Assembly (NCBI GenBank): GCA_020718925.1
Contig: DYRC01000003.1
Location: 1-40,246 of the forward strand
Source of the DNA: Desulfonema limicola
GTDB taxonomy: Bacteria > Desulfobacterota > Desulfobacteria > Desulfobacterales > DYRC01
Length of the DNA stretch: 40,246 nucleotides
Reading direction: 5' to 3'
Made by a program: the position numbers and the translations under genes. A model generated the notes under the pieces. The model was not told where the DNA came from. It saw nothing but the letters and a program-made list of their open reading frames with translations, and did not search any database. This document shows positions 203-17,888 of this stretch, in pieces. Position 1 is the stretch's first letter. The number at the start of each line of letters is the position of its first letter.

Positions 203-1659
203 TTATTTGGGCAATTCATCAGGCGAAATGCCAAGCGCGTCAGCAATTCCCTTTCCATACGCCGGATCAGCTTTCAGACAATTGCCGATATGTCGGAGTT
301 TGATCTCCTTCGGTGCTTCGGCAATGGCGCGGGCAGTATTTTCAAACAGAACTTTCTGCTGCGCCGGAGTCATCAGTCGGAAAAGCTTGCCGGGCTGTGA
401 GTAATAGTCTTCATCCTCACGATGATTCCAATGATCAGCCGCGCCTTCAAGACTGAGGGGCGGTTCGGCAAATTCCGGCTGCTGCTGCCATTGTGCGTAG
501 CTGTTCGGCTCATAACCGAGCGTGGAGCCGTAATTGCCGTCAACCCGCATCGCGCCATCGCGGTGATAGCTGTGAAACGGGCAGCGCGGGGCATTGACCG
601 GAATCAGATGATGATTCACGCCGAGCCGGTATCGCTGGGCATCGCCGTAGGAAAACAAACGTCCCTGCAACATTTTATCCGGTGAGAATCCGATACCCGG
701 CACAATATTTGCCGGATTGAATGCCGCCTGCTCAACTTCGGCAAAATAGTTTTCAGGATTACGGTTCAGTTCCATCACGCCGACTTCGATCAGCGGATAA
801 TCCTTGTGAAACCAGACTTTTGTGAGGTCAAACGGATTATAGGGACACTTTGCCGCATCTTTTTCCGGCATGACCTGAATGAACATTGTCCATTTGGGAA
901 AGTCGCCTTTTTCAATGCTGTTATACAGATCACGCTGATGGCTTTCCCTGCATTTGCCGATAATTGCCTCTGATTCTGCGTCTGTAAGATTTTTAATGCC
1001 CTGCTGGGTATGAAGATGAAACTTGACCCAGAATCGCTCGTTTTCGGCATTGATCATGCTGAAGGTATGACTGCCGAAACCGTGCATGTGGCGGTAAGAC
1101 GCCGGAATGCCCCGGTCGCTCATCACAACAGTAACCTGATGCAGGGCTTCCGGCAGAGATGTCCAGAAATCCCAATTGTTCAAGGCACTTCTCAGATTGG
1201 TGCGCGGATCCCGCTTGACCGCATGATTGAGATCCGGAAATTTCAGAGGATCGCGCAGAAAAAAACCGGCGTGTTGTTTCCTACCAAATCCCAGTTTCCC
1301 TGTTCAGTATAGAATTTGATAGCAAAGCCCCGTATGTCCCGCTCCGCATCTGCCGCGCCGCGCTCGCCTGCCACTGTGGAAAAGCGGGTGAAGAGTTCGG
1401 TCTTTTTTCCCACTTGGGAGAATATTTTGGCTTTGGTATAACGGGTAATGTCGTGGGTAACGGTAAATGTTCCGTAAGCCCCGGAGCCTTTGGCGTGCAT
1501 CCGCCGCTCAGGAATCACTTCCCGGTCAAAATGTGCCAGCTTTTCCAGAAACCAGACATCCTGAAGCAGCATCGGACCGCGTTTTCCGGCGGTCAGGACA
1601 TTCTGATTGTCAACCACAGGCGAGCCTGCATTGTTGGTCAGCTTTTTCTGTTCACTCAT
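203..1659 (-). pseudogene. katA: Monofunctional heme catalase (KatA-like, about 485 aa if repaired), split into two ORFs by a 1-nt frameshift in a homopolymer.
   Basis: ORF 1243..1659 encodes the catalase N-terminus ([22 protein letters not shown] ... VGNNTPVFF). ORF 203..1183 encodes the rest ([23 protein letters not shown] ... [14 protein letters not shown]). Adding one T to the T7 run (A7 on the + strand, 1259-1265) restores the expected [28 protein letters not shown] junction. Confidence 0.85.
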
Positions 1660-4076: not shown

Positions 4077-5243
4077 CTAAAACTCAATAGCAATCTGTGC
4101 GGTCAGCACATCTGCTTTATCATCATTTTCAAATTCATCATGGCGATATTCCAGTGCAACAGATGTTTTATCGAATATATTTACGCTGACAACACCCATG
4201 TAGCGGCTTTCGGGAAAGAACTCCTCTGCATGATCCGATCCCTGATATGCCAAGCCGAATGTGGTCTCTTTGCCAAACATCTCGGCGGTATAGCCGATTT
4301 CAGCATTCCATGTGCTTGTTTTTTCCCCTGTAAAAACAGGTCCGATTCCCATTGCTTCCAATGCGCCCGGTAACAACTCCGACATATTCCATTCCGGTTC
4401 CTCAAGCATGGTGATATATTCTCCGATCAGCGTCAACTGTCCGAATTTGATGACAGCATAAGCACCGAGACCGGGTATGTAGTCCCGAAAAGAAAACGCA
4501 AGTCCCATACTTTCGGCATGGCTCTTTTCTTCTTCAAGAACATCTCCCCAGCCGTTTGAATCAATCAGGCTGTTGATGTATCCCAGCCCGATATCCATGC
4601 TGAAACCCTCTTTTCCCATCGTATAGCCCGCAGCAACACCGAAGTTGTCCGCATGATTATCGCCGCCGTCTTTATTCACATCTCCGTTGAACATATATGC
4701 CGCAGCATAAAACCCTTCTGATTTGAAACCGATTTCAACAGCCGATTCCCGTGTTTCACCCAATTCCAGCGTCAGCGGATCGGAAATCATATTGGATTTG
4801 AAATTGCCGAAAGGCACATACAGCTTTCCTGCCTTGAGATAAAGCGGCATGACATCCGCACCATCCAGCAGAATAAAGCCTTTATCCAGAACAACATCTT
4901 CATCGTCTTCGTATAAAAAGAGCAGACTTCCTTTGACATGCTTGGCAATATCAATATCAATGCCCACCTCCACTTTTGATAAAGCCAGATCACTGGTATT
5001 GTTGTCCTCCGCGTAGGGATCGGCAAAATTCATTTTTTCATAGCTTCCTTCTGCTTCGATAACGCCGCTGAAACTGATACGCTCTGCCCATTTGCCCGGA
5101 AGCGCTTTATCTTTCAACTGCTCCTCAATCTGCTTAACCCGTTCACTCAGATCACCACTCGGTGTTTCCTCGGCATACGCCGTGAATACAAGCGAAAACA
5201 CGCATACCACCAGACACAATACTGCCCTGTTCACTTTTTTCAT
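4077..5243 (-). CDS. Putative outer-membrane beta-barrel porin.
   Basis: Signal peptide (MKKVNRAVLCLVVCVFSLVFTAYA), alternating-hydrophobicity strands rich in G/Y/D, and a C-terminal ...IAIEF ending in Phe. An RBS aaaaggaga precedes the ATG. Confidence 0.6.
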   Translation of the reverse strand: MKKVNRAVLCLVVCVFSLVFTAYAEETPSGDLSERVKQIEEQLKDKALPGKWAERISFSGVIEAEGSYEKMNFADPYAEDNNTSDLALSKVEVGIDIDIAKHVKGSLLFLYEDDEDVVLDKGFILLDGADVMPLYLKAGKLYVPFGNFKSNMISDPLTLELGETRESAVEIGFKSEGFYAAAYMFNGDVNKDGGDNHADNFGVAAGYTMGKEGFSMDIGLGYINSLIDSNGWGDVLEEEKSHAESMGLAFSFRDYIPGLGAYAVIKFGQLTLIGEYITMLEEPEWNMSELLPGALEAMGIGPVFTGEKTSTWNAEIGYTAEMFGKETTFGLAYQGSDHAEEFFPESRYMGVVSVNIFDKTSVALEYRHDEFENDDKADVLTAQIAIEF

Positions 5244-5281: not shown

Positions 5282-6169
5282 CTAAAATCCCTGCTGAAGC
5301 CAATCCATCGCAAGCCCTTTTTCAATCAGTTCTCTGCCATGAGGGCTTTTCATAAACGCAAGATATTTCTGTGCTGCTTCCGAAGATGCTGCCCGACTGA
5401 CCAAAGAAATATTTGCAAGAAACGGATATGTGCCATTTTTTTCAACTGCCCGTGTCGGAAAGATACCGCCGATTTTCAGAACTTTGCTCTTATCGTTGAG
5501 AAAAAAGCGCGGCGCCATAGTGATTGCCATTTCCAAGTCCGCAATTTTCTCAAACTGATTATCCGTAATTTCAACAGACATCACGGCGTGTTTCAGTCGT
5601 TCCCGATTCTTGGCAATTCCGGCTTTTTTGATGGCTTGCTCAATCAGATCATCGTAATTTGCGCCGCATTCCTGCCGATAAATGATGATATTTCTGTCTT
5701 TTCCGCCGACTTCTTTCCAATTTCCGATCTGACCTGCAAAAATCTTCAACACCTGTTCAACAGTAAGTTCGTTCACCGGATTGTTTTTGTTCACGATCAC
5801 GGAATAAGCCAGCGAATCCAATCGGGTTTCCACGATTCCGGCTGCCTGTTCCTCGGCAGTCAGCGGTCTGTGCAGCGTTCCGATGTCTGCTTTTCCCAGA
5901 CGAACCGTTTCAACGCCTTTGTGAACACCGGAGCAATCGTTGTTCATGGAAAACGCATAACTCGTCTCTTTTTTGTAAGGATTGGAAAATGTTTTCTGCT
6001 CCTCATGCCCGACCACCACGAACGGAAAAATACACCGCGATGTAACATTGACTGTTAATTCAGGCAGTTTAGGATTATCGGCAAATACTACCTGTGGAAA
6101 TCCCATCACTCCTGCCGCAGCCGCGCTCAGTTTTAAAAAATGCCGTCTGGTGCAAGACCTGCAATTCAT
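5282..6169 (-). CDS. Tat-exported periplasmic substrate-binding protein, PstS/PBP_like_2 (phosphate-binding) family.
   Basis: Twin-arginine signal (CTRRHFLKLSAAAAGVMG). PstS-family motif LTVEQVLKIFAGQIGNWKEVGG. Confidence 0.7.
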   Translation of the reverse strand: MNCRSCTRRHFLKLSAAAAGVMGFPQVVFADNPKLPELTVNVTSRCIFPFVVVGHEEQKTFSNPYKKETSYAFSMNNDCSGVHKGVETVRLGKADIGTLHRPLTAEEQAAGIVETRLDSLAYSVIVNKNNPVNELTVEQVLKIFAGQIGNWKEVGGKDRNIIIYRQECGANYDDLIEQAIKKAGIAKNRERLKHAVMSVEITDNQFEKIADLEMAITMAPRFFLNDKSKVLKIGGIFPTRAVEKNGTYPFLANISLVSRAASSEAAQKYLAFMKSPHGRELIEKGLAMDWLQQGF

Positions 6170-6247: not shown

Positions 6248-6424
6248 TTACTCCGGTTTCTGATACGCATTGTAATGCCAGATGGAAAATCCGACCAGAG
6301 CGATGCCTGCCCATGTATGAATCTGCCGATTCGGACATCTTTTTCCCGCGCCGGTGAATACGAGCGCGGCAAGAGAAAATGTCATTCCGGCTTTTGCAAG
6401 GAATCTGATGTCGGAGCTTTTCAT
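6248..6424 (-). CDS. Small (58 aa) two-TM membrane protein, the last gene of the iron operon.
   Basis: Internal ATG at 6424 with RBS gaggaataat. It starts 1 nt after the upstream stop. Sequence: MKSSDIRFLAKAGMTFSLAALVFTGAGKRCPNRQIHTWAGIALVGFSIWHYNAYQKPE. The 94-aa track ORF upstream of this ATG overlaps the preceding gene. Confidence 0.5.
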   Translation of the reverse strand: MKSSDIRFLAKAGMTFSLAALVFTGAGKRCPNRQIHTWAGIALVGFSIWHYNAYQKPE

Positions 6425-6425
6425 A

Positions 6426-6767
6426 TTATTCCTCAGCCTCTGCTTTCTGACGCACTTCAGCCTGAACATCCTCGAATTTTTCTTTGAGTTCGTTCGCGCC
6501 GCTCTGCACCATATCATACAGCTTGATAGCACCTTTCATCACCGCTTTCTGAACCCCTTCATTGGTAACAAAAATCGCGGCGATAGCGCCCAGCGCAATG
6601 CCTTTCCAGAACTGCTGGCTGTGATAAAAAACAGCCGGATCATCATAAGCATTCTGGTAATATGCAGGATACATTCCTGATTGAGAAGAATGTCCTGCGG
6701 GTGTGCTGCATCCGCCATGCCCCGGATGACCCGAATGACCGGAACGATATTCACTGTAATCAGACAT
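6426..6767 (-). CDS. His/Gly-rich small membrane-associated protein with an amphipathic acidic C-terminal helix.
   Basis: N-terminus SGHSGHPGHGGC. Hydrophobic motif FWKGIALGAIAAIFV, shared with the C-terminus of the 7135..7704 product. Strong RBS ggaggag. It overlaps the upstream gene by 8 nt. Confidence 0.65.
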   Translation of the reverse strand: MSDYSEYRSGHSGHPGHGGCSTPAGHSSQSGMYPAYYQNAYDDPAVFYHSQQFWKGIALGAIAAIFVTNEGVQKAVMKGAIKLYDMVQSGANELKEKFEDVQAEVRQKAEAEE

Positions 6768-7116
6768 TTTCTGACTCCTCCTTTTTCGATACGCTTTTCA
6801 CTTTTTCAGAACCCGATTTTCCGACTGAATTGAGCAGATAAACCACAGAACTGGCAGCCGCAGCCATTACGACCACAGACATAAAACCGCCGCTGATTGT
6901 GGAAGCGGCAGCAGCTCCGACAGCCGTTGCCACGCCTGCTCCCGCGCCTTTTGCAAGACTGTTGCTGAGAGCCTGCTCCATTGTCATTTCATTGCTGCGG
7001 ACTTTGTGAAGATTCATGCCCAATGCTGCCGAACCTCCTACAACTGTTCCGAGAATTCCCGCGTTGAGAACATATTTCGGATTATACGATGATGACGGAG
7101 TGCTATATACTCGCAT
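6760..7116 (-). CDS. MamC/Mms13-like two-TM Gly/Ala-rich membrane protein.
   Basis: GILGTVVGGSAALGMN...(loop)...KGAGAGVATAVGAAAAS...GG resembles my recollection of magnetosome MamC (GILGGIVGGAAALAKN...KEAAGAGLATAFSAVAA...GGG). ATG at 7116 with RBS gaaggga; the track start at 7131 is TTG. Confidence 0.6.
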   Translation of the reverse strand: MRVYSTPSSSYNPKYVLNAGILGTVVGGSAALGMNLHKVRSNEMTMEQALSNSLAKGAGAGVATAVGAAAASTISGGFMSVVVMAAAASSVVYLLNSVGKSGSEKVKSVSKKEESENV

Positions 7117-7134
7117 AAATTTTCCCTTCAATTA

Positions 7135-7704
7135 CTAAGATTTGAACGCTTTGGTCAGTATCAGCGCACCCACCGCGCCCAATGCAATGCCTGTCCAGAA
7201 TCGGGTGTTTTGGCAGTCAATCCCGAAAAAGCTGCTGACAGTATTCATATCCGCCGCAGTTACGCCGCCGGTCATAAATCGCCCCATCATTTCCGATACA
7301 TGACCGGGACCATATTGCTGCTGATCTCCGCACGAGCAATGACTCTGCCCCTGCTTCGGATGACCGCCTTTCATGCCTGAATGAGACGATTGATTCGGAT
7401 AATATCCGCCTTGCTGAAAATTCTGCTGCATATCCGAGTATGGCGGCTGCTGATTCGCATATCCGCCCGAAGGTCCCATATTCATCTGCTGACTCTGATG
7501 ACTGGAGCCGGAGCATTTATGAGAGCTTTGCGGCGGCTGATTCGGGTATCCGCCCGGATGTCCCATATTCATCTGACCCTGATGACCACTTGCCGCGCCC
7601 TTCTGTTCGCCTGATGCGGCATCGCCCTGATTGTTCTGAAACGCTGCTTCCTGCGCCATAGCCTGTCCGCCTTTTTCAGAATGACTGCATGTTTCCTGTT
7701 CCAT
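7135..7704 (-). CDS. Gln/His/Gly/Pro-rich repeat protein with Cys/His clusters and a C-terminal membrane anchor.
   Basis: Repeats GHQGQMNMGHPGGYPNQPPQ and SHQSQQMNMGPSGGYANQQPP. HKCSGSSH and SHCSCGD clusters. C-terminal RFWTGIALGAVGALILTKAF. RBS aaaggag. Confidence 0.65.
   Translation of the reverse strand: MEQETCSHSEKGGQAMAQEAAFQNNQGDAASGEQKGAASGHQGQMNMGHPGGYPNQPPQSSHKCSGSSHQSQQMNMGPSGGYANQQPPYSDMQQNFQQGGYYPNQSSHSGMKGGHPKQGQSHCSCGDQQQYGPGHVSEMMGRFMTGGVTAADMNTVSSFFGIDCQNTRFWTGIALGAVGALILTKAFKS
7442..7587. repeat. Intragenic tandem DNA repeat: two ~58-60-bp units about 90 bp apart that encode the Q/H/G-rich peptide repeats.
   Basis: 7442-7501 ggcggctgctgattcgcatatccgcccgaaggtcccatattcatctgctgactctgatgac versus 7530-7587 gcggcggctgattcgggtatccgcccggatgtcccatattcatctgaccctgatgacc. 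Confidence 0.7.
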
Positions 7705-7728: not shown

Positions 7729-9936
7729 TTAAACCGACTTTTCGCCTTTTTTTGCCAATTCTTCCATATCTGTCTGATAAAAAAGCAATTTTGCAGAATT
7801 GCCCACCACGCCTACGGTAATCAGATTGTGAAACAACGCGCCAGCCATCGGTGAAAGCCATCCGAAAGCAGCCAGCACAATGCCTGCCAGATTCAATCCG
7901 ATAGAAATGGCATAATTCTGCTGAATCCCGGACAAAGTTCTCTGTCCCAAATCCGCACACCGGACAACCAAAGCCAGATCGCCTTGTCTGATCACAACAT
8001 CCGCATGTTCGATTGCCGCATCCGCGCCGGTGTCTCCCATTGCAACACTCAAATCCGCATGAGAAAACGCAGGCGTATCATTGATGCCGTCTCCGACCAT
8101 GCCCACAACAGTATCGGGATATTTTTCCTTCCATGAAGCAATCCATGCTGCCTTGTCTTCGGGAGATTGCTGCCAAAGCACCATGTCAATCGGCAGGTCT
8201 TTGGCAATATTGACCGCATGACGCTCATGGTCTCCGGTAATCATTGCCAGATGCTTCACATTCAAGCCTTTGAGCGCGTACAGCACTTCTTTGGCTTTTT
8301 CCTTCAGACGGTCTTCGATGCCGATCAGCCCGATCAGACGGCGGTTGAATGCCACAAACAGCACGCTTTCGCCTTTGTTGAGAATCCGCTCTTCTTCGTC
8401 ATGCCCCATTTCATGGTCAACTTCGTAATCTTCCATAAAATGATGACTGCCTACCAGAACCTCATCCCCGTTGATTTTTGCCCTGACGCCATGCCCGATA
8501 ATAAGTTCGGTTTCCTCGTGTCTTGGAATTTCGATTTCGATTTCCCGAACCTTTTCAAGCACTGCCAGCGTCATGGGATGTTTCCAATGAATCTGAGAAC
8601 TTGCTGCCAATTGCAGAATGCGGATCGGTTCGAATTGAGGATCCAGCGTAACAATTCTCGACACTCTGGGAATGCCTTTGGTCAGTGTGCCGGTTTTGTC
8701 GAAAAACAGCGTATCCATACGCCCGGCAATTTCCAGATAGCACCCGCCTTTGATCAGTATTCCCTGCCGAGCCGCATTGCCCATTGCTGCCATGATTGCC
8801 GTAGGTGTTGACAGCGCAACCCCGCAGGGACACGCGATAATCAGCATGGACAAGGCTCTGGAGATGCTTCGGGTAAGGAAAAATACTGCCATCGAAAGAC
8901 ACAGGGAAATCGGCACCACCGCATCGCTGAATTTTTCAGCAGACAACTGCACTTTGGAGATTGCGCCGTCTCCGTTTTCAATCAGGCGGATAATTGCCGC
9001 AAGCCGGGTATCTTCGCCCACAGAATCCGCTCTCACGAAAACATGCCCCATTTCCACAGTTGTTCCGGCAAATACTTTGTCGCCTTCGGTTTTGAACGCT
9101 GGCAAAGATTCGCCGGTCAGCGTGGCTTCGTTCATCAGGCAGTCTCCGCGAATGACCGTGCCGTCTGCCGGAACAGAACTGCCCATTCTCAGACTCAGAA
9201 TATCGCCTCTGACCAATTCCGATACCCGGACGGAAACTTCCACTTCATCCCTGAGTATCCACACTTCGCGGTTTTCCTGCTTCAGCATAGCACGCACGGC
9301 TTTGCGGGTTCTTTCCTGTGTTCTGTTTTCGATCCATGCGGAAAAATTGATCAGCCATACCACGACCATTGCGGTGATCGGCTCTCCCATGACAATGGAC
9401 AGATAGGACGCGCTGACAATCAGCAAGTCCATGTTCACACGCCGATCCCTGAACAGACTTTCCAGCCCGTCTTTGAGAATCGGAATGCTTAAAGCTATTG
9501 ACAATATGGCAGGAACATTGAAAATTCTGCCGATTCCCGAAAATATCCCGGAGCTTTTGTGAAAAAAGAAGCGATGTATCCACAGCCCCAGCATGTATAT
9601 CCCGGAAATTGCCAATATCGGACCCGGAACATGGGATTCTTTGCCCGAATAAGACGGACAGGATTTTTCTTTGACAGCACAAGCCCTGTTTTCCGAACCG
9701 CAGATATGCGGAAAATCTTTTTCCAGCATTGCCCGGACAGATTCCAATCCGAAATCCGCTTCATGCAGAAGAACCACCGAGCCGGTATTCAGCCGGATTT
9801 CCGCAGAAGAAATTCCGGGAATATGCACCAGTGCGTCCGATACCTGCTGTGCCAGCGATTTTTTCTGCTTCAGAGCAAGAAGTCGGATTCTGCTCCGCCG
9901 GGGCAGACGATGTTCAATATGAAACTGTTTTTTCAT
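7729..9936 (-). CDS. Heavy-metal P1B-type ATPase, paralogue 1, with a non-canonical metal-site signature.
   Basis: DKTGTLT, TGDH, GDGINDTPAF and a TM4 ACPC motif. The N-terminal HMA-like domain has no CxxC (HRLPRRSRIRL). Cys-rich linker CGSENRACAVKEKSC. TM6 reads LFHNLITVGVVGNS rather than MxxSS (Cu) or DxG (Zn). Confidence 0.9.
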   Translation of the reverse strand: MKKQFHIEHRLPRRSRIRLLALKQKKSLAQQVSDALVHIPGISSAEIRLNTGSVVLLHEADFGLESVRAMLEKDFPHICGSENRACAVKEKSCPSYSGKESHVPGPILAISGIYMLGLWIHRFFFHKSSGIFSGIGRIFNVPAILSIALSIPILKDGLESLFRDRRVNMDLLIVSASYLSIVMGEPITAMVVVWLINFSAWIENRTQERTRKAVRAMLKQENREVWILRDEVEVSVRVSELVRGDILSLRMGSSVPADGTVIRGDCLMNEATLTGESLPAFKTEGDKVFAGTTVEMGHVFVRADSVGEDTRLAAIIRLIENGDGAISKVQLSAEKFSDAVVPISLCLSMAVFFLTRSISRALSMLIIACPCGVALSTPTAIMAAMGNAARQGILIKGGCYLEIAGRMDTLFFDKTGTLTKGIPRVSRIVTLDPQFEPIRILQLAASSQIHWKHPMTLAVLEKVREIEIEIPRHEETELIIGHGVRAKINGDEVLVGSHHFMEDYEVDHEMGHDEEERILNKGESVLFVAFNRRLIGLIGIEDRLKEKAKEVLYALKGLNVKHLAMITGDHERHAVNIAKDLPIDMVLWQQSPEDKAAWIASWKEKYPDTVVGMVGDGINDTPAFSHADLSVAMGDTGADAAIEHADVVIRQGDLALVVRCADLGQRTLSGIQQNYAISIGLNLAGIVLAAFGWLSPMAGALFHNLITVGVVGNSAKLLFYQTDMEELAKKGEKSV

Positions 9937-12137
9937 GCTGTTTTTCCATTATCTCCTTTCCAAGTCAGCAGACGACTCGAATTTGCCAAAATTCCCAAAG
10001 TATGGACAATATGCAGCATACCGCCCATCAGAGGACTGAGCAGCCCCATTGCACCGAAAACCATGCCGAAAATATTGGTGGAGGTGGCAAGCCAGTAATT
10101 CTGGTCAATGACTCTGAGCGTCTGACGGCTCAACTGTCTGAGTGTGAGCAGCCGTTTCAGATCACTGTCTGTCAGGGCGATGTCTGCGGCTTCGATGGCA
10201 ACATCCGCACCGCCCGCGCCCATTGCAATTCCGACACTTGCTCTGGACAATGCCAATGCGTCATTCACGCCGTCTCCCACCATGACCACCCGGCATCCGC
10301 TGCTTTCCAGCATTTCCAGATGATACGCTTTGTCTTCCGGCAAAAGTTCTGCTTTGTAATCATCAAATCCCAGACTTTCAGCCAGATGCTTTGCCACAGG
10401 CTCGGTATCTCCGGTAATCAGATGCAGATTTTTCACCCCGTCTTTTCTGAGATATTCAAGCACACTCAGGGCATGAGGGCGAAGCGTGTTACCGACAGCG
10501 ATCAGTCCGTGAAGTGTCTGATTTTCCGCCACATAAATCAGAGTCTGCCCCATTGCCACACGCTTTTCCGCTTCTTCGGCAAAAAAGGAAATGTCAATTC
10601 CGCCCTGATTCATAAACCTGCTGTTTCCCACCATGATTTTATTGCCGTTCACCTGCGCGGTTACGCCCAATCCCAGCACAAATTCGCAGGTTACATGAGA
10701 CCTTGGCAGGATGCCCCGAATCTCCGCTTCTTTCATCACAGCTTTTGCCAAAGGATGTTCGTTATGGATTTCGGCAATCGCCGCCAGTTCCAGAACATCG
10801 TTTTCGGTTTTATCCGCTAAGAATGAAATAATTTCAGATATCTGCGGAACATCAATGGTCAGGGTTCCGGTTTTGTCAAAGCAGAAACTATCGGCTTTTC
10901 CGACCATTTCCAGATACAGCCCGCCTTTGATGAGAATATGGTTTTTGGCAGCATTGGCAATTGCCGCGCTGATTGCCGTAGAAGCCGCAAGCACGGTCGC
11001 GCACGGACATGCCATGACCAGCATGACCGTAAATGCCCGGAACGGATTAAGCGTAATCAGCAGCGTGCCGACAGTTGCAGATATGCCGATTTTGAACAGA
11101 CGTTCAGCCAGAATATCCGCCTGCTGCTCGACCGGAGCGCGGTTTTCCAAAGAATCTTCAACCAATTGCAGAATGCGGCATAAGTATGTGTCATCTCCGA
11201 CTTTTTCAGCGTGGATGAAAATAACGCCTTTCTGAACAATGGTTCCGGCAAACACAATATCGTTTTCCCCGCGCGTCTCCGCTTCCGCGCGACCCGTGAT
11301 ATGCGATTCGTCAATAATCGCCTGACCTCTGACAATCGTGCCGTCAACCGGAATTTTTTCGCCGGTATGAATCACCACCGTATCTCCGGGGTTGAGTTCA
11401 TCCGCACAGATGCGGACTTCTATGCCGTTGACAAAAATGTAGGTATCTTTTTCCGCAATCTGAAGAATCTCGCGGATGGCTTTGCGCGATTGTTCTGCCA
11501 CATAATCCTCCAGCAGCATTCCGACCCGAAGAATCCAGATCACTTCAAGCGCGGTCATGGCTTCTCCCATTGCAATGCCGAGCAGAATGGAGCAAGCAAG
11601 AAAGGGAAACAGGCTTTTGTGCCTTCCGTGGCGCAGGTCGGCGATAGCATGTCGGAACAAGGGAATGGACGCAATCAGACTGACCAGAGATGTCAGGCTG
11701 AAAATGCCCTGTGCCGCAGGAGATTTGGAAATCACCCGCCGGATAATGACATAGCCCACAAACAGGGTCAGTGCGATAATGCCGAGCAGCGAGTCGAACA
11801 AAGACTGCTTTTTCCGCTTTGTTTTTTCAGACGGATCACACTTTACGCAACTCATGGCGCACACCGAAGGCATCCGGGAAGATCGCGCCTGTTTCGGATG
11901 AATCTCCAATGCCTGTATCAGCAGTTCCCTGAGTTGTTCGGGCTTGATCTCCTTGTGTTTGTAGCACACAATCACGCTTCCCGAATGCGCCCGGACTTCA
12001 ATTTTGGTGATGCCGTTTTTCTGAGCCAGCCATTTTTCCAATGAGACTGCCCGCTCATACGCATGGAGAATCTCATTGACATTGAATCGCAGCCGCCCCG
12101 AAATAGCATGTCGGATTGTAATTCGGCTTTTTTTCAT
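9933..12137 (-). CDS. Heavy-metal P1B-type ATPase, paralogue 2, with a non-canonical metal-site signature.
   Basis: DKTGTLT, TGDT, GDGVNDALAL and a TM4 ACPC motif. N-terminal HMA2-like ISGRLRFNV without a loop-1 CxxC. Linker CAMSCVKC. TM6 reads MLHIVHTLGILANS. ATGA overlap with the downstream paralogue. Confidence 0.9.
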   Translation of the reverse strand: MKKSRITIRHAISGRLRFNVNEILHAYERAVSLEKWLAQKNGITKIEVRAHSGSVIVCYKHKEIKPEQLRELLIQALEIHPKQARSSRMPSVCAMSCVKCDPSEKTKRKKQSLFDSLLGIIALTLFVGYVIIRRVISKSPAAQGIFSLTSLVSLIASIPLFRHAIADLRHGRHKSLFPFLACSILLGIAMGEAMTALEVIWILRVGMLLEDYVAEQSRKAIREILQIAEKDTYIFVNGIEVRICADELNPGDTVVIHTGEKIPVDGTIVRGQAIIDESHITGRAEAETRGENDIVFAGTIVQKGVIFIHAEKVGDDTYLCRILQLVEDSLENRAPVEQQADILAERLFKIGISATVGTLLITLNPFRAFTVMLVMACPCATVLAASTAISAAIANAAKNHILIKGGLYLEMVGKADSFCFDKTGTLTIDVPQISEIISFLADKTENDVLELAAIAEIHNEHPLAKAVMKEAEIRGILPRSHVTCEFVLGLGVTAQVNGNKIMVGNSRFMNQGGIDISFFAEEAEKRVAMGQTLIYVAENQTLHGLIAVGNTLRPHALSVLEYLRKDGVKNLHLITGDTEPVAKHLAESLGFDDYKAELLPEDKAYHLEMLESSGCRVVMVGDGVNDALALSRASVGIAMGAGGADVAIEAADIALTDSDLKRLLTLRQLSRQTLRVIDQNYWLATSTNIFGMVFGAMGLLSPLMGGMLHIVHTLGILANSSRLLTWKGDNGKTA

Positions 12138-12292
12138 TCTGCTTTTCCATTCTTAGTCAATATGCAGTTACATGATGAACACCCGCATCCGCCGCCGCAT
12201 CTTTCGGGATTTTTTGCTGTTTTCCGAACCGTATTGGCAAGATAGAGAACAGCCATACTGATAATGAGAAAAATGACTATGTTTTCAAACAT
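12134..12292 (-). CDS. FeoB-associated Cys-rich small membrane protein (52 aa).
   Basis: MFENIVIFLIISMAVLYLANTVRKTAKNPERCGGGCGCSSCNCILTKNGKAE: one TM helix plus a CGGGCGCSSCNC tail. RBS aaggag. It starts 17 nt after the feoB stop, and its stop overlaps the ATPase start (ATGA). Confidence 0.75.
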   Translation of the reverse strand: MFENIVIFLIISMAVLYLANTVRKTAKNPERCGGGCGCSSCNCILTKNGKAE

Positions 12293-12309: not shown

Positions 12310-14448
12310 TTATAAAATCAGCGATCCGATCTGAAATACCAGCACCGCCAGCGTAAATGCCAGCAAAGTATTGAATATCATTGAAAACGCTCCCCATTTC
12401 CACGATCCGGCTTCTCTGGCAATACACACCACCGTTACAAAGCAGGGCGCGTAAAACATGATGAAAATAATCAGACTGAGCGCGGTCAGAGGAGACCATC
12501 CGGGAGATTTGGTAAGCATTTCTCCCAAAGAATCACTGGCTTCGGGATCAACATTTCCCATCGAATATGCCGTACCCAGTGTGGAAACCACGACTTCTTT
12601 TGCCGCAAAGCCGCCCACCAGCGCGATATTGGTGCGCCAGTCAAACCCTGCAAGCCATGAAATGCTTTCCAATGCGGTTCCTATTCTTCCGGCTATCGAA
12701 TATTTCAGCCCTGCTTCAGCCTGAGCAGCATCAATCGCAGTAAGCTTATCTTTGTCAGATTGCGCCACAGTATTGCGCTGCTGATCGAATTTCTCCGCTT
12801 CCGAATCCGGCAGTCCGGGGAATGTCATCATGCCCCATAAAACCACGGAAACCGCGAGAATCACCGTGCCTGCTTTTCTGATATACTGCCACGTTCTTTC
12901 ATAAGTATGAGTGGCAAGACCTTTGAGCGTTGGAAGCCGGTACGGCGGAAGTTCCATAACAAAGGGCGATGCTTCTCCTTTGATGACAGTCATCCGCAGA
13001 AGTTTTGCCACCAGCAGCGCGCCGCCCCATGAAATCAGCGTCAGGGCAAACATAAGCAGTCCTTTGTGATTCGGAAAAAATGCGGCAATCAGAAGGGCAA
13101 ATACCGGCAATTTCGCGCCGCAGTTCATAAACGGAGCGGTCAGAAGTGTTGCCAACTGCTCACGCGGTGATTTCAGAGTCCGGGCTGCCATAACGCCGGG
13201 AACCGCGCACCCTCCGGCAATGCCGCCGGATACGATAAATGCCATCACCGAACTGCCGTGCAGCCCGAACATGCCGAATACTTTATCAAGCATGAAAGCA
13301 ACCCGTGCCAGATAGCCGGAATCTTCAAGTGCGGCAATGCCCAGAAACATAAGCATAATCAGCGGCACAAAACTCAGAACTCCGCCCAGTCCGTCAATAA
13401 TGCCGGATATGATCAGAGATTTCAAAAGTCCGTCAGGCAGAGTTTCGGATGCCAGTCCGTTCAGCCATGCGAAAAAAGCATCCAGCCATTTCACAGGTAT
13501 TTCGCTGAATGTGAAAATGAACTGATACAGCCCGAAAAGTATCAGCAGCATTATCACGGGTCCTGCGATTCGGTGCGTCAGAACTTTGTCAATTTTATCC
13601 GATGCGTAAAGCCGGTTTTTATCGTATTTTTCCTTCAGCACGCCCTGTTTGAGAACCGAGCGGATATAGCCATAACGATAATCGGCAATCAGAGCTTCGG
13701 GATAAGTATCTGATGTGTACTGCAAATGCTCTGACACTCTTTCGACAATGCGTTCAAGTTTTGCAGACAAAACCGCATTTCTGCCCCGCCCCTTTGCCAA
13801 AAGCTGCTCGTCTTTTTCCATATATTTAAGGGCAATCCAGCGCGAAGGATAAATGTCTGTCAGAAAATTACCGGCACAGATTTCTTTTTCCATTTCGAGA
13901 ATCGCGCTGTCTATATCCTGTCCGTAAGAAATCACAAGAGGCTGCTTTTTCTCTTTTTTATCGGCAAAAGCGGCAGCAGTATCCATCAGTTCCTGTTTGC
14001 CGTATCCGGTTCTGGCGATAATCGGAACCACCGGAACGCCTAATGATTTTGAAAGCCTTTCCGCATTGATTTCTATGCCCCGATCTTTTGCCAAATCCAT
14101 CATGTTCAGGGCAATACAGACCGGGACGCCGAGTTCGAGCATCTGAATGGTCAGATACAGATTGCGTTCCAAATTGGAAGCATCCGCAATATTGATAGTT
14201 ACGTCCGGCGATTCATTGACCAGAAAATCTCTGGCAACCACTTCTTCCATCGAATACGCGGTCAGAGAATAGGTTCCGGGAAGATCGGTAATCCGCATCT
14301 TGTAACCGTTATACACACACCTGCCTTCTTTTTTTTCTACGGTAACTCCCGGATAATTGCCAACATGCTGACGCGCACCGGTCAGTTCGTTGAACAGCGT
14401 GGTTTTGCCGCAGTTGGGATTTCCGCCCAGTGCAATGGTCGTTTCCAT
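12310..14448 (-). CDS. feoB: Ferrous iron transporter FeoB (N-terminal G domain plus polytopic membrane domain).
   Basis: G1 motif GNPNCGKTTLFN, then DLPGTYSL and NMMD, followed by the gate/core membrane domain. 712 aa. Confidence 0.95.
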   Translation of the reverse strand: METTIALGGNPNCGKTTLFNELTGARQHVGNYPGVTVEKKEGRCVYNGYKMRITDLPGTYSLTAYSMEEVVARDFLVNESPDVTINIADASNLERNLYLTIQMLELGVPVCIALNMMDLAKDRGIEINAERLSKSLGVPVVPIIARTGYGKQELMDTAAAFADKKEKKQPLVISYGQDIDSAILEMEKEICAGNFLTDIYPSRWIALKYMEKDEQLLAKGRGRNAVLSAKLERIVERVSEHLQYTSDTYPEALIADYRYGYIRSVLKQGVLKEKYDKNRLYASDKIDKVLTHRIAGPVIMLLILFGLYQFIFTFSEIPVKWLDAFFAWLNGLASETLPDGLLKSLIISGIIDGLGGVLSFVPLIMLMFLGIAALEDSGYLARVAFMLDKVFGMFGLHGSSVMAFIVSGGIAGGCAVPGVMAARTLKSPREQLATLLTAPFMNCGAKLPVFALLIAAFFPNHKGLLMFALTLISWGGALLVAKLLRMTVIKGEASPFVMELPPYRLPTLKGLATHTYERTWQYIRKAGTVILAVSVVLWGMMTFPGLPDSEAEKFDQQRNTVAQSDKDKLTAIDAAQAEAGLKYSIAGRIGTALESISWLAGFDWRTNIALVGGFAAKEVVVSTLGTAYSMGNVDPEASDSLGEMLTKSPGWSPLTALSLIIFIMFYAPCFVTVVCIAREAGSWKWGAFSMIFNTLLAFTLAVLVFQIGSLIL

Positions 14449-14450
14449 AG

Positions 14451-14684
14451 TTACTGCACCTCCACCTCAATATAATCTGCCTCTTTGTTTCTTAAAGTCA
14501 GTATGAATCCTTTGATTCTCAGCGCAACCGGATCATATAGCGGCGCGCGTCCCTGAACTTTGATTTCCGTGCCGGGTACAAGCCCCATATCCCGGATCCG
14601 CCTGCCCAATTCTCCGGCAGCTTTCACAGAAGTAACGATTCCTGCCTGATTGTCCTGCATCTGTCGCATGATTAAACGAGCCAT
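14451..14684 (-). CDS. feoA: FeoA family protein.
   Basis: SH3-like FeoA pattern (RRIRDMGLVPGTEIKV...APLYDPVALRIKGFILTLRNKEADYIEV). It lies directly upstream of feoB with a 2-nt gap. Confidence 0.85.
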   Translation of the reverse strand: MARLIMRQMQDNQAGIVTSVKAAGELGRRIRDMGLVPGTEIKVQGRAPLYDPVALRIKGFILTLRNKEADYIEVEVQ

Positions 14685-15688
14685 TATGATAAGCCTCCTG
14701 ATTCAGACAGTTTTTTCTTGGCAGAATATGGGCAGTTTTTGCAATTCCCGCTGCAATGATGTTTTTTGGCTTCAGGCGCAACAATCACCTTGCTTCCGTT
14801 GGGCGCGATGTCAAATCCTTTTTTTCCTTTGAAAAAGATACGATCTGCGGGCAGCAGGTTGAAATTCAGTCCGCACCGGAACGTATTACACCCGAAAGAG
14901 CAGAGATGATGCAGATGATTTGTGTCAATAAACACTCTTCCCCTGCCGTCATATTTATTATGAATAAAATTAAGCAGTTCATAAGCGGAACTCCCGTCAA
15001 AATCCCCTCTGGGCTTCAGATGAAGATCACCGTTGCTGTTTCTTGATTCGATCTGAAAATCTGCACTCATGTTTTTTCCTCCGATCACTGAAAATAACGT
15101 TTGAATTTTGTCCCTATCAGCAGATAAGGCATGAACAATGTCGGGATCGAACTGCGTCCCGGAATTTATGATAATTTCATCAACAGCCGCATCAAATGTT
15201 TTTGGCAGCCGATATGAACGACAGCCTGTCATGGCAGACAAACTATCTGCTACGGCAATGATTCTTGCGCCGAGCGGAATCGCCCTGCCTTTCAATCCGT
15301 GCGGATATCCCTGTCCGTCATAACGTTCATGGTGATAAAGCACCATCTCGCAGATACCGGCTGCCTCAATTTCCCGAACCGGACCAAGAATCGCTGCTCC
15401 GATCTGCGGATGTCTGCGTACAGCCTGCCATTCGGCATCATTCAATTTGCCTTGTTTGTTCAGAATACAATCCGGCACGCCGATTTTTCCGATGTCGTGA
15501 AGATGTCCGGCAATATGAATAATATCCGCATGATTTGTTTCCAAGCCGAGCGATAATGCTAAAATGCGGGATATTTCGGCAACTTCCAGCGAATGCTTTT
15601 CCGTGTAAGCATCTTTGGCATCAACGGCATTGCCCAGAGATTCGGCAAACTGATGAATCGCTGTCATGGATTTCGGTACGGACTTCAT
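14684..15688 (-). CDS. HD-GYP domain protein (putative c-di-GMP phosphodiesterase) fused to a STAS-like C-terminal domain and a Cys-rich tail.
   Basis: HSLEVAE...HLHDIGKIGVPD...HHERYDGQGYPHGL. The C-terminal ~130 aa follow a STAS-like pattern (LHLKPRGDFDGSSAYELL...VFIDTNHLHHLCSFG). Tail HHCSGNCKNCP. Its stop shares 1 nt with the feoA ATG (TAATG). Confidence 0.8.
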   Translation of the reverse strand: MKSVPKSMTAIHQFAESLGNAVDAKDAYTEKHSLEVAEISRILALSLGLETNHADIIHIAGHLHDIGKIGVPDCILNKQGKLNDAEWQAVRRHPQIGAAILGPVREIEAAGICEMVLYHHERYDGQGYPHGLKGRAIPLGARIIAVADSLSAMTGCRSYRLPKTFDAAVDEIIINSGTQFDPDIVHALSADRDKIQTLFSVIGGKNMSADFQIESRNSNGDLHLKPRGDFDGSSAYELLNFIHNKYDGRGRVFIDTNHLHHLCSFGCNTFRCGLNFNLLPADRIFFKGKKGFDIAPNGSKVIVAPEAKKHHCSGNCKNCPYSAKKKLSESGGLS

Positions 15689-16941
15689 AGCTCCCTTACC
15701 GCGCCGGAAGTTGCTGCGATATTCGGTCTCTGAATCCCCTGAAATATCGCATTCAAGCCTGAGCCTGAAAGCATCTGAACCGGCTTATGGTGTTTTTTGC
15801 CCAGTTGTTTGACCAGTGTACATGCCGCATGACTGTTGCAGTTGACCGGACACAGCACGATGTCTGCCCGCCTGAGACTGCATTCAAGCTTGCCCACGCC
15901 TCCTTTGACATGCCCGTCATGGTATTCAAAGATTCCGCCGCTGCGCTCAACTACCTGACGATACAGCGATTCCATCCTGCTGATGCCGCCGACAATCAAT
16001 ACCCGCTTTCTGCACAAATCAAAGGACGGACAGCTTTGATTACAGCCATTTATTCCGCAGGACTGCATCATCATATCGTGAATTTCTTTCTGAAAATTCG
16101 ATTCCGATTCGCTCTTCCTCAGCAAATCAGTGGTTAATCGCTGATTTTCCGCTTCAAGCTTGACAATCTGCTTTGCAAACAATACGGCTTTTTCGGAAAT
16201 CCTTGTCTGATCCGCCTTTAATTTCCGGTTTTCCTTTTTCAACTCTTCAAATTCTGCATGAAGTTTCCGATCTTTTGCTGCCTCAAGCTCGGTCTCAAGC
16301 AGGATTTTCTGTTTTTCCGAAATATCCAGACGAAGTTTCAGTTCATTCGCTGCATTTTGCAGAGATTCGACTTCTTTTTGCAGAATTTTGCGATGCCTGT
16401 TTTCTTCATCTGCTTTCTCCGCAGCTTTGCGGCTTTGTTCCTGCATCAGATCGGTGCGTCTGAGCATATCCGCCCGCTCTTCGCTGTTTCTGTGCATGGA
16501 CATGTGAATATCCCCGAACACTTCCCGGCGGAATTCTTTTGACAGATTGCGGCGGGAGGCAAGATACCAGAATATTCCGATATATTCTCCGGCTTTGAAA
16601 CAGATCTGCCACTGCGCTGCCAATTCTGCTTCTGTCATGGCTGCAAATAATTCCGATTCGCGGGAAAATTTACGGACAAGCAGGCTGTCAATTTTCCGGG
16701 ATAAACGATTTTCACTTTTTGAACTGGCAACCAGAATTTCGTGCATCTCGAAAAGACTTGTTTTTTTCAAAGAAAGCCCTGATTTTTTAAGTAGTTGCTT
16801 TTGTTCGGATACGCTAAGACATATCCCTGCTATCGGGCATGAGAAAAAATCATCTGTCTCCCAAAACTTCAAACGGGCGGAGTGATCGCTCTGTGCCGTA
16901 ATTTCAGTGAAATCCGGCAGCATTTTGCCTGAATTTTGCAT
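15685..16941 (-). CDS. DUF2325-domain protein with a long central coiled coil.
   Basis: N-terminal ETDDFFSCPIAGICLS motif. About 130 aa of heptad-rich K/E/L sequence. C-terminal DUF2325-like VLIVGG...ADIVLCPVNCNSHAAC. RBS aaaggagg. 4-nt overlap with the next gene. Confidence 0.7.
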   Translation of the reverse strand: MQNSGKMLPDFTEITAQSDHSARLKFWETDDFFSCPIAGICLSVSEQKQLLKKSGLSLKKTSLFEMHEILVASSKSENRLSRKIDSLLVRKFSRESELFAAMTEAELAAQWQICFKAGEYIGIFWYLASRRNLSKEFRREVFGDIHMSMHRNSEERADMLRRTDLMQEQSRKAAEKADEENRHRKILQKEVESLQNAANELKLRLDISEKQKILLETELEAAKDRKLHAEFEELKKENRKLKADQTRISEKAVLFAKQIVKLEAENQRLTTDLLRKSESESNFQKEIHDMMMQSCGINGCNQSCPSFDLCRKRVLIVGGISRMESLYRQVVERSGGIFEYHDGHVKGGVGKLECSLRRADIVLCPVNCNSHAACTLVKQLGKKHHKPVQMLSGSGLNAIFQGIQRPNIAATSGAVREL

Positions 16942-16955
16942 GAATACCTCCTTTC

Positions 16956-17007
16956 AAATAAAAAAGGCGCAGCCCAAGACGGATTTATCCGTATCGAGTT
17001 ACGCCTT
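16956..17007 (-). terminator. Rho-independent terminator-like hairpin plus U-run. It lies 3' of the 95-aa ORF and only ~15 nt 5' of the RBS of the iron operon.
   Basis: The outer stem pairs aaggcg (16964-16969) with cgcctt (17002-17007). There is an inner perfect hairpin acggat-tt-atccgt. On the minus strand the structure is followed by ttttttatttg. Confidence 0.55.
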
Positions 17008-17066
17008 CACTTTTTCCGCGCTGATTCAGCCGGAAACCGTAAGACATCCCAAACTATTCAATAAAT

Positions 17067-17354
17067 TTATTCAGATTCAATCAACGCCTGAGTAAGTTGT
17101 CTGCGTAATACCTCAAGCCGCTTGGATTTGAATGCTTTTCTGCTTTCATCCAATACTTCGATGGCGTCTCTGATCGCTGTTTTCAGTCTGAGTTCACGAG
17201 AACATAAAACCGGGTGATTTCCAAAACCGTGTTCACCGGATTGCCTCTCCAAAATGGAAGCTATCACACAACGATGTTTTTCAATATCCTGATACAACGA
17301 ATGAATGCTCTCATGAACAGTTCTGAGCATCAGATCGTTTTTGTCCGACTCCAT
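17067..17354 (-). CDS. Hypothetical 95-aa helical protein.
   Basis: Clean ORF between dtxR and the iron operon, on the same strand. I recognise no domain. Confidence 0.45.
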   Translation of the reverse strand: MESDKNDLMLRTVHESIHSLYQDIEKHRCVIASILERQSGEHGFGNHPVLCSRELRLKTAIRDAIEVLDESRKAFKSKRLEVLRRQLTQALIESE

Positions 17355-17420: not shown

Positions 17421-17888
17421 TTAATCGGTTTTCTCCGATTTTCGGCTTCTATATTCTTCAAAATGATTGAGACGATCTCCGCCCATCGGACATGTCTGTA
17501 TAAATTCAATGAAATCCGTAAGGCTGTCCAGCGTTGACGGACTGAGCGTATGTTCTATCCTGCACGCGTCTTCATCTGCGGTTCTGAAATCAATTTGCAG
17601 GATTTCAGTCAGAAACTTTCGGATAAGCTCATGGCGTCTCCGCATTTCTCTGCCGATGTCAGCGCCATGCTCCGTCAGTTCCACATATTCGTATTTTTCA
17701 TAGTGAACCAACTTCCGCTCATTCAATGTTTTGAGCATACTGGTAACAGAGGGCATCCTGACCTCCATCCTTTTGGCAATATCCCTGACCCGCACAATCT
17801 TCTGATCTCTGTCAAGGTCATAAATCGCTTCAAGGTAATCTTCCATCACAGATGTAAGAGGCTTCTCTGCCGCATGATCGCTTATCAT
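17421..17888 (-). CDS. DtxR/MntR-family metal-dependent transcriptional repressor.
   Basis: N-terminal HTH pattern MEDYLEAIYDL...VRVRDIAKRMEVRMPSVTSMLKTL. Dimerisation/metal domain with HELIRKFL...EDACRIEH. Confidence 0.85.
   Translation of the reverse strand: MISDHAAEKPLTSVMEDYLEAIYDLDRDQKIVRVRDIAKRMEVRMPSVTSMLKTLNERKLVHYEKYEYVELTEHGADIGREMRRRHELIRKFLTEILQIDFRTADEDACRIEHTLSPSTLDSLTDFIEFIQTCPMGGDRLNHFEEYRSRKSEKTD

Follow-up and report, generated by a model that had tools for sequence, protein, structure and literature searches.

Ferrosomes, lipid-bounded compartments in which anaerobes store iron, were recognised only recently, and the experiments made on them so far concern only clusters built around the pump FezB. 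FezB (P1B-6) is defined by the motifs D[Y/F]SCA and HNxxT, and shares an arginine-rich (R-rich) N-terminal motif with related pumps, including mycobacterial CtpC (Grant et al., bioRxiv 10.1101/2020.01.10.902569). The hallmarks of fez clusters given in the same work are GxxxG proteins, DUF4405, FeoA, and neighbouring feoAB and DtxR genes. The accessible part of its supplement describes a further type of pump: Supplementary Table 1 holds a group with [AST]CPC[AS]T, H[IVM]xH[TS] and GRxR (examples Dde_0489, SMUL_2754 and Desti_4191), and Supplementary Table 3 gives the CPC/HxxH[TS] group as the second fez-cluster ATPase, group 1-2, which is named FezH in the text; Desti_4191 stands in the first of these tables and not in the other. 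Two locus tags from Desti_4191 is an ungrouped entry, Desti_4193 of Desulfomonile tiedjei (ACPCGVS / HNLIT / WRTRIKV), and the same part of the supplement holds no D[Y/F]SCA entry that we could find for D. tiedjei. In addition, a review of mycobacterial pumps describes CtpC as combining CPC with the P1B-6 motif HN-x-(S/T), without CxxC. Here we analyse two adjacent P1B-type ATPase genes of Desulfonema limicola, located in a stretch of 40,246 nucleotides (contig DYRC01000003.1, positions 1 to 40,246; hereafter the window). With moderate confidence, and on the basis of sequence comparison, we take the two pumps to be the ATPase components of a ferrosome-type (fez-like) iron cluster without canonical FezB.

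The two pump genes are minus-strand open reading frames (ORFs). An initial annotation of this DNA had reported two pumps of ~735 amino acids (aa) with an ATGA start/stop overlap, and that description holds: the upstream ORF (9933..12137) encodes 734 aa and the downstream ORF (7729..9936) 735 aa, and at their junction, ACAGCATGAAAAAA, the start ATG of the downstream pump overlaps the stop TGA of the upstream pump at 9933-9936. A second ATGA overlap, at 12134-12137, links a small FeoB-associated gene to the upstream pump. Every motif string quoted by the annotation was located in the pump sequences; the mapped positions are listed below, all on the minus strand, M4, M5 and M6 being membrane helices.

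9933..12137, minus: upstream pump, FezH-type P1B-ATPase (TIGR01525, motifs, clade with 100% bootstrap, eight transmembrane helices in the AlphaFold2 model)
12084-12101, minus: upstream pump, R-rich SGRLRF, residues 13-18
11838-11861, minus: upstream pump, CAMSCVKC (CxxxCxxC), residues 93-100
11283-11297, minus: upstream pump, TGRAE, with TGR replacing TGE, residues 281-285
11001-11009, minus: upstream pump, CPC, residues 377-379
10863-10877, minus: upstream pump, DKTGT
10074-10082, minus: upstream pump, STN of M5
9999-10013, minus: upstream pump, HIVHT of M6, residues 709-713
7729..9936, minus: downstream pump, unnamed CPC/HNxxT clade near CtpC (TIGR01525, all canonical catalytic motifs, clade with 100% bootstrap, AlphaFold2 model)
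9880-9900, minus: downstream pump, R-rich RRSRIRL, residues 13-19
residues 79-93, minus: downstream pump, Cys linker CGSENRACAVKEKSC
9106-9117, minus: downstream pump, TGES
8824-8832, minus: downstream pump, CPC, residues 369-371
8686-8700, minus: downstream pump, DKTGT
7891-7899, minus: downstream pump, GLN of M5
7816-7830, minus: downstream pump, HNLIT of M6, residues 703-707

Both proteins score above the cut-off of TIGR01525, the model for P1B heavy-metal ATPases (484 bits for the upstream and 514 bits for the downstream pump, cut-off 346), and both match Pfam E1-E2_ATPase and Hydrolase. Both carry DKTGT, TGD, GDGxND, HP and a Cys tripeptide in M4, the sole departure from the P1B pattern being TGR in the upstream pump. 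The N-terminus had been described as an Arg-rich domain without CxxC, and this is what we find: RRSRIRL and SGRLRF are present, neither pump matches PF00403, and AlphaFold2 models (mean confidence, pLDDT, 83 for the upstream and 81.5 for the downstream pump) give a beta-beta-alpha-beta-beta-alpha domain with the Arg-rich motif in its first hairpin. Pfam HMA_2 (PF19991) matches this region in the upstream pump at E 5e-12 and in the downstream pump at E 1.4e-6, where 28.8 bits narrowly miss the 30-bit cut-off. The models also show eight membrane helices in each pump, with M4 unwound at CPC, the tripeptide that the annotation had rightly placed there in both proteins; their best structural matches in Foldseek are CopA, ATP7B, ZntA and sCoaT (top 4bbj, 7r0g and 4umw). 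The Cys-bearing linker is disordered in both models. Such a linker had been reported for the two pumps alike, and the strings do occur in both, but family alignments restrict its conservation to the upstream family, in which CxxxCxxC(x)P precedes the first membrane helix (for example ACGLECPVCHP) and is missing in a few deeper members; the conserved element of the downstream-family linker is SHV[PS]G, and Cys is not conserved there. The linker motif of the upstream family could be a cytosolic metal-binding or sensing site.

In agreement with the annotation, neither pump has the Cu(I) signature MxxSS or the Zn(II) signature DxG, and the His/Thr pattern that it had likened to Fe/Co-type sites does resemble, in its M6 His...Thr spacing, the HEGxT of P1B-4 pumps. 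Placement with CopA or ZntA, which it had named, along with Cu or Zn specificity in assays, as the outcome that would contradict an iron-type pump, did not occur, the CopA and ZntA equivalog models giving 271-337 bits against cut-offs of 1005-1316. What does not survive is its view of a hybrid signature outside the published classification. The signature is already catalogued: the upstream pump (ACPCATV / HIVHT / SGRLRF) is an exact fit to the CPC/HxxH[TS]/GRxR group of Grant et al., the downstream pump fits the Desti_4193 entry in the accessible part of their supplement, and the CtpC combination was noted in the review cited above.

The placement of the pumps was examined in a neighbour-joining tree (66 sequences, 692 columns, 100 bootstraps). 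Four groups were each recovered with 100% bootstrap: the FezH-type clade, which includes the upstream pump; the downstream-type clade, which includes the third ATPases of Desulfobulbaceae fez clusters; the D[YF]SCA group; and CtpC. Joining of the downstream type with CtpC and the Firmicute CPC/HNxST pumps obtained 52%, and a superclade of R-rich pumps 62%. The upstream pump is thus a member of the FezH-type clade, and in the genome loci that we compared (numbered L; proteins from searches are numbered P) this clade takes in pumps that lie beside canonical FezB (L093, L096, L101, L108, L110, L122 and L125). Its 119 full-length relatives all have [AS]CPCA in M4 and HxxH[TS] in M6, and nearly all have GRxR near the N-terminus. 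Some FezH-type representatives (P0248, P0249 and P0264) have SPC instead of CPC in M4, as ASPCAT or TSPCAT; the Co/Fe-type P1B-4 pumps carry this same tripeptide. A different clade, well-supported and unnamed, of CPC/HNxxT type and near CtpC, holds the downstream pump, which keeps every catalytic motif of a working P1B pump. Its relatives have CPC and HN..T and grade towards mycobacterial CtpC (35-38% identity) and, further off, towards D[YF]SCA / HNxxT proteins. Judged by its tabulated motifs, Desti_4193 is a downstream-type pump, the sole member of this type to appear in the accessible part of the earlier tables. A literature search under the name FezH gave nothing relevant.

The pumps lie within a minus-strand string of genes (17888 to 4077) in which neighbours mostly overlap or stand a few bases apart. 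The window is chromosomal, with tig-clpP-clpX-lon further along. The other members of the string are as follows.

17421..17888, minus: DtxR-family iron-dependent repressor, head of the string (Pfam Fe_dep_repress and Fe_dep_repr_C)
17067..17354, minus: conserved 95-aa protein of unassigned function (L083, L084 and L085 have homologues, E 1e-26 to 1e-29, in the interval from DtxR to the pumps)
16975-17035, minus: GC-rich hairpin and T-run in the gap after the 95-aa gene, directly ahead of the ribosome-binding site of the DUF2325 gene (read by eye; not listed by the terminator scan)
15685..16941, minus: DUF2325 protein with a long coiled-coil N-terminus (Pfam DUF2325, E 4.6e-24)
14684..15688, minus: HD-GYP-type (HD_5) protein (Pfam HD_5, E 5.8e-38; kept beside DUF2325 in related loci)
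14451..14684, minus: FeoA (Pfam FeoA, E 2.2e-18)
12310..14448, minus: FeoB, ferrous iron permease/GTPase (TIGR00437, 560 bits, above cut-off; Pfam FeoB_N, Gate and FeoB_C)
12134..12292, minus: small Cys-rich membrane protein associated with FeoB, 52 aa; its stop and the start of the upstream pump share ATGA (Pfam PF12669, E 2.7e-8)
7135..7704, minus: 189-aa protein (p189) with a Gln/Gly/His/Cys-rich low-complexity N-terminus and a C-terminal membrane helix with GIALGAVG (GxxxG), from sequence
6760..7131, minus: MamC-like two-helix membrane protein (p123), probable ATG start at 7116 (NCBIfam MamC NF038051, E 7.6e-11, below cut-off)
6426..6767, minus: 113-aa protein (p113) with a His/Gly-rich N-terminus, a QFWKGIALGAIAA helix and a charged (Glu/Ala/Lys-rich) helical tail, from sequence
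6248..6424, minus: DUF4405-like two-helix ORF of 58 aa, FezF-like (weak Pfam DUF4405, E 0.027; L001 orthologue E 3.8e-5)
5282..6169, minus: periplasmic binding protein of the PstS/PBP_like_2 family with a twin-arginine (TAT) signal (Pfam PBP_like_2, E 7e-19, and TAT_signal; TIGR02136 below cut-off)
4077..5243, minus: LbtU-family siderophore porin of the outer membrane (NF033652, 291 bits, cut-off 90)

The content of this string is that of a fez cluster: p189 and p113 with G(I)ALGA, the DUF4405-like ORF, FeoA, FeoB and DtxR are all present. GxxxG-type or Gly/Ala-rich segments occur in all three of the small membrane proteins p189, p123 and p113. The QFWKGIALGAIAA motif of p113 resembles group 2-1 examples in the accessible material of Grant et al., such as DYLKGLALGAGVAL and QFLLGLLIGGLAAY; p113 also gives weak YtxH and DUF5132 matches. 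Orthologues of p189 follow the pump pair in L001, L083, L084 and L085 (E 1e-32 to 1e-39), and a weak relative is found in the FezB-containing locus L096. The p123 ORF reaches 42 bits against the MamC equivalog model, whose cut-off is 100 bits, and it is accordingly called MamC-like and not MamC; nevertheless, 19 of 20 members of its family match that model, including members beside canonical FezB (best E 1.8e-14), and the L002 orthologue carries a Pfam MamC assignment. A literature search turned up no paper that connects MamC-like proteins with fez clusters.

Related loci were collected by scanning species-representative genomes with a FezH-specific C-terminal pattern (a six-sequence alignment), which returned 46 loci that were classified by ORF calling, phmmer and motifs. 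A full-length downstream-family alignment was also tried as the query and was discarded, as it picked generic P-type motifs and returned unrelated P1B pumps. The layout of the window, with a FezH-type pump, a downstream-type pump (IACPCG / HNLIT), and MamC-like, p113-like and DUF4405-like proteins, is shared by nine genomes with no D[YF]SCA pump within 10 kb, and L129 is a further locus of FezB-less layout. Eleven genomes have a D[YF]SCA FezB with a FezH-type pump and the same small proteins, often with feoAB, and FezB, a FezH-type pump and a downstream-type third pump occur together in four Desulfobulbaceae genomes and in the Desulfobacter locus L130. The small proteins of the window have homologues in the FezB-containing clusters, at E 1e-24 to 1e-33 for the MamC-like, E 1e-16 to 1e-20 for the p113-like and E 1e-18 to 1e-22 for the DUF4405-like protein. 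This synteny, together with the homology of the small proteins to those beside FezB, points towards a fez-type cluster in which a CPC/HNxxT pump occupies the usual place of FezB. The pump pair, the upstream DUF2325 and HD-GYP-type genes and the three small downstream proteins are found again in a Desulfamplus metagenome-assembled genome and in a Desulfomonilaceae genome. A more distant downstream-type pump, P0025, comes after DtxR, FeoA, FeoB and a FezH-type gene, and is accompanied by small R-rich HMA_2 proteins.

Together, this evidence suggests a model in which FeoB would bring Fe(II) into the cytoplasm, and the downstream pump, with a putative membrane site of Cys, Cys, Asn, His, Asn and Thr, would use ATP to drive Fe(II) from the cytosol into a membrane-bounded compartment for storage. 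By analogy with what has been proposed for FezB, this compartment may be shaped by the GxxxG-type, MamC-like and DUF4405-like proteins. A Fe(II) importer transcribed together with P1B pumps that empty the cytosol would make sense if those pumps filled a separate compartment. The FezH-type pump would probably form a long-lived phosphoenzyme; it would then either pump slowly or under special regulation, or serve as the partner of the conventional pump. As to the Fe(II)-type substrate proposed in the annotation, iron is the best reading of the context (the feoA/feoB string, the upstream DtxR gene and the fez-type accessory genes), and the function itself is suggested by analogy. A recurrent version of the cluster with FezB replaced would widen the set of genomes that may build such compartments, a CPC-type pump in the place of FezB would offer a natural test of which metal-site residues matter, and the MamC-like protein hints at a common ancestry of ferrosome and magnetosome membrane proteins.

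Several observations weigh against this model. All proven ferrosome systems depend on a FezB with D[Y/F]SCA, and no ATPase with this motif was found in the 40-kb window, so that the position within ~10 genes of a FezB homologue, by which group 1-2 was collected, does not apply to the upstream pump, nor does it to Desti_4191; a canonical fezB could nonetheless lie elsewhere in the genome. The window also holds no R-rich FezC- or FezD-type protein, and its DUF4405 and MamC matches fall below the curated cut-offs. Eight membrane helices are predicted in both pumps, against six described for FezB. Of the characterised pumps, CtpC is the most closely related to the downstream pump, and the review describes it as a plasma-membrane zinc exporter; the tree is of the neighbour-joining type only, and its deep nodes are weak (52-62%). 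No member of either pump clade has been the subject of an experimental study. Finally, no RNA run that might confirm co-transcription contains the locus; the DNA runs that contain it are soil, biofilm and cave metagenomes only.

The upstream pump departs from the conventional pattern at a position that is central to catalysis. Its A domain reads ITGRAE where P-type ATPases carry TGE, the loop that serves as the built-in phosphatase of this domain, and HMMER aligns its T-G-R-A without gaps on S-G-E-P of A. fulgidus CopA. The change extends through the family: all 119 full-length relatives have [TNS]GR except one with TGK, and in the genome loci every FezH-type ORF with a readable motif lacks the Glu, with TGR, NGR or SGR, or TGN in two Planctomycetota. 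A profile search of 1.84 billion proteins, reduced to representatives at 50% identity, gave 24 HxxH[TS] proteins with a readable motif; of these, 20 have Arg at the position, three have His, Val or Gln, and one has Glu. By contrast, TGE is kept in all the downstream-type, CtpC-type, FezB-type, CopA-like and ZntA-like sequences examined. In a 41-sequence alignment, G282, R283, C377-P378-C379, D421-K-T-G-T, H461, D622, N625, D626, T687, H709 and H712 of the upstream pump are invariant. Loss of the Glu with strict conservation of the phosphorylation site points to a changed catalytic cycle and not to decay, and the normal dephosphorylation step is probably not possible in a FezH-type pump. We propose tentatively, and as a suggestion that could well prove wrong, that the FezH-type ATPases are a natural clade without the catalytic Glu of the TGE loop, usually replaced by Arg, with an intact ATP/phosphorylation site and a His-rich metal site, which operates outside the standard Post-Albers cycle, for example through long-lived phosphoenzymes. 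The literature search found no report of a loss of the TGE glutamate, and the accessible text and supplement of Grant et al. make no mention of the change. If the proposal is correct, a FezH-type pump might gate the release of stored iron or control the adjacent conventional pump, and ferrosome-type compartments would hold a loader and a second, mechanistically different ATPase, a pair that in this window would work without canonical FezB. A clade with the phosphorylation machinery but without the dephosphorylation Glu would also be of interest for the P-type catalytic cycle.

A related refinement of the fez-type model, which we regard as possible though doubtful, is that the FezH-type pump is a phosphorylatable but non-cycling partner, complexed with a conventional pump as its regulator, scaffold or iron-release gate. 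The absence of the TGE Glu across the FezH-type clade, with invariant DKTGT, HP and GDGxND residues, agrees with this idea, as does the presence of a TGE-bearing R-rich ATPase, of FezB type or downstream type, within 10 kb in most loci with enough flank. The pump genes are translationally coupled in the window and in L083, L084 and L085, and the heteromer suggested by the annotation gains some plausibility from a TGE-to-TGR change that is confined to one of the partners; its other suggestion, action on two membranes, found no support. Moreover, natural fusions of a degenerate R-rich P1B-like unit to a P2-type ATPase indicate that such units can function while joined to a second pump, though the fused proteins fall outside the FezH clade. 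A FezH-type gene without any R-rich partner is seen in four loci whose flanks are complete (L090, L105, L117 and L120), and strict conservation of CPC and of the His-rich M6 site suggests that metal is still bound and probably moved. The fused proteins (P0267, P0276, P0287, P0289, P0324 and P0333) are ~1600-1700 aa long, with an N-terminal R-rich P1B-like unit whose M4 is degenerate (AGCPA, AACPS or AAAPA), in some cases with a degenerate TGE, and a C-terminal P2-type ATPase with PEGLP. In L090 (539-3739) and L105 (11670-14873) a P2-type ATPase gene adjoins the FezH-type gene.

A different function for the locus would be CtpC-like efflux of Zn, Mn, Cd or excess Fe(II) across the plasma membrane to the periplasm, in an 'effluxosome' without any organelle, where the GxxxG proteins, small and single-helix, would serve as scaffolds or chaperones in the manner of PacL. 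The downstream clade does group with CtpC and the Firmicute CPC/HNxST pumps, though at only 52% bootstrap; source annotations name both families 'manganese/zinc-transporting P-type ATPase C', CtpC has CPC, HN-x-S/T and a metal-binding domain (MBD) without CxxC, and it depends on small PacL proteins with GxxG and Glu/Ala repeats, to which p113, a GxxxG-type helix followed by a Glu/Ala/Lys-rich tail, may be compared; the eight helices of both models are also those of plasma-membrane P1B-1 and P1B-2 pumps. However, none of the small proteins matches DUF1490 (PacL) in Pfam at E up to 5, and the homology of the accessory genes is to the genes flanking canonical FezB and not to PacL. No metal-resistance regulator of the ArsR, MerR or CsoR families lies nearby, and a Fe(II) importer in the string with DtxR upstream fits storage better than detoxification, all of which makes plain efflux rather unlikely. 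Membership of a magnetosome island is far less probable still, and we set it aside: the NCBIfam MamC model matches p123 and 19 of 20 relatives, and the closest named relatives of the pumps include Desulfamplus sp. and a Magnetomoraceae bacterium, but all the MamC matches are far below the equivalog cut-off, the window has no other mam or mad gene, and the cluster is also found in Desulfobulbus, Desulfomonilaceae, Planctomycetota and a spirochaete. Ferrosomes, furthermore, are genetically independent of magnetosomes in D. magneticus (Grant et al., 10.1101/2020.01.10.902569). The pair had also been described as duplicated, and a recent, sub-functionalising tandem duplication might be read from its adjacency, near-equal lengths and identical domain order. 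This we consider the least probable of all, because the two proteins are only 33% identical and fall in separate fully supported clades, each spread across several phyla, while the families also occur apart and in other combinations; their sequences indicate ancient paralogues. Nor is their arrangement a matter of chance, since at least nine species-representative genomes have the two genes side by side. We therefore retain the fez-type cluster without FezB as the preferred explanation.

A DtxR homologue precedes the pumps in L083, L084, L085, L124 and L129. The hairpin and T-run that follow the 95-aa gene mean that this gene and dtxR may form a separate or attenuated transcription unit. Promoter and terminator scans stayed at background level, with no convincing minus-strand terminator inside the string, and no DtxR/IdeR consensus box was present in the window at three or fewer mismatches. 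The DUF2325 family adjoins the pump pair in L001, L002, L085, L121, L122 and L124, and DUF2325 and HD-GYP-type genes lie directly upstream of the pumps in several genomes (window 14684-16941; L001 7386-9946; L002 8619-9791 and 17584-19265); this conservation suggests that the cluster receives a signal, possibly through cyclic di-GMP. At the other end, an LbtU-family porin has an equal place, after the DUF4405-like ORF, in L083, L084 and L085. The mineral of ferrosomes is iron phosphate, and it may be relevant, and perhaps no coincidence, that a phosphate-binding-type protein of the PstS family stands beside a cluster for storing such a mineral. Outside the string, a catalase gene (203-1659, minus strand) is broken at a T-run by one frameshift (…NTPVFF | LRDPLKFPD…) and so read as two ORFs, which reflects either a pseudogene or an assembly error; adjoining it is a Fur-family gene (1784-2272), which has a promoter-like site in perfect agreement with TTGACA-17-TATAAT.

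Compared with the described systems, the window pumps share with CopA (P1B-1) and ZntA (P1B-2) the overall fold, the eight-helix topology, CPC in M4 and the conserved Asn of M5, but they lack MxxSS and DxG in M6 and the CxxC HMA domain. With the P1B-4 pumps (PfeT, CtpD/CtpJ, CzcP and sCoaT), for which Fe(II)/Co(II)-type specificity is proposed, they have in common an M6 His with a Thr four residues on (HEGxT, against HNLIT and HIVHT). Only these His and Thr positions coincide, since P1B-4 pumps differ from those of the window in having SPC in place of CPC, and Glu-Gly after the His; neither of the two pumps groups with them, and the structural match to 7qbz (sCoaT) is no closer than that to CopA. 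P1B-4 pumps are also not known to have the two additional N-terminal helices or an N-terminal MBD.

CtpC (Rv3270 of M. tuberculosis), with its partner PacL1, comes closer to the downstream pump, in that both combine CPC in M4 with HN-x-(S/T) in M6 and an R-rich MBD without CxxC, and both have small single-helix GxxG/GxxxG partners encoded alongside. The motifs differ in detail (ACPCAVG / HNASS in CtpC, ACPCGVA / HNLIT in the downstream pump), identity remains at the 35-38% given above, and where CtpC has a DUF1490 (PacL) gene directly upstream, the upstream neighbours in the window are feoB and the FeoB-associated gene; CtpC is moreover reported in the review to respond to zinc and not to iron. 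With FezB (D. magneticus DMR_28330 and the FezB of S. putrefaciens, R. palustris and C. difficile) the downstream pump shares HNxxT in M6 (HNLIT, whereas the upstream pump has HIVHT), TGE, and a position next to GxxxG, DUF4405 and Feo genes, and both window pumps have the R-rich motif, as RRSRIRL and GRLRF. It differs in belonging to a separate clade, at ~32-35% identity to DYSCA proteins; in place of D[Y/F]SCA the downstream pump has IACPCG and the upstream pump MACPCA, and the models of both predict eight helices and not six. The FezH proteins of group 1-2, finally, are the closest counterparts of the upstream pump: unlike the published group it has no canonical FezB nearby, but it agrees with them in M4, in M6, in the N-terminal GRxR, in a clade with 100% bootstrap and in the accessory genes that lie alongside.

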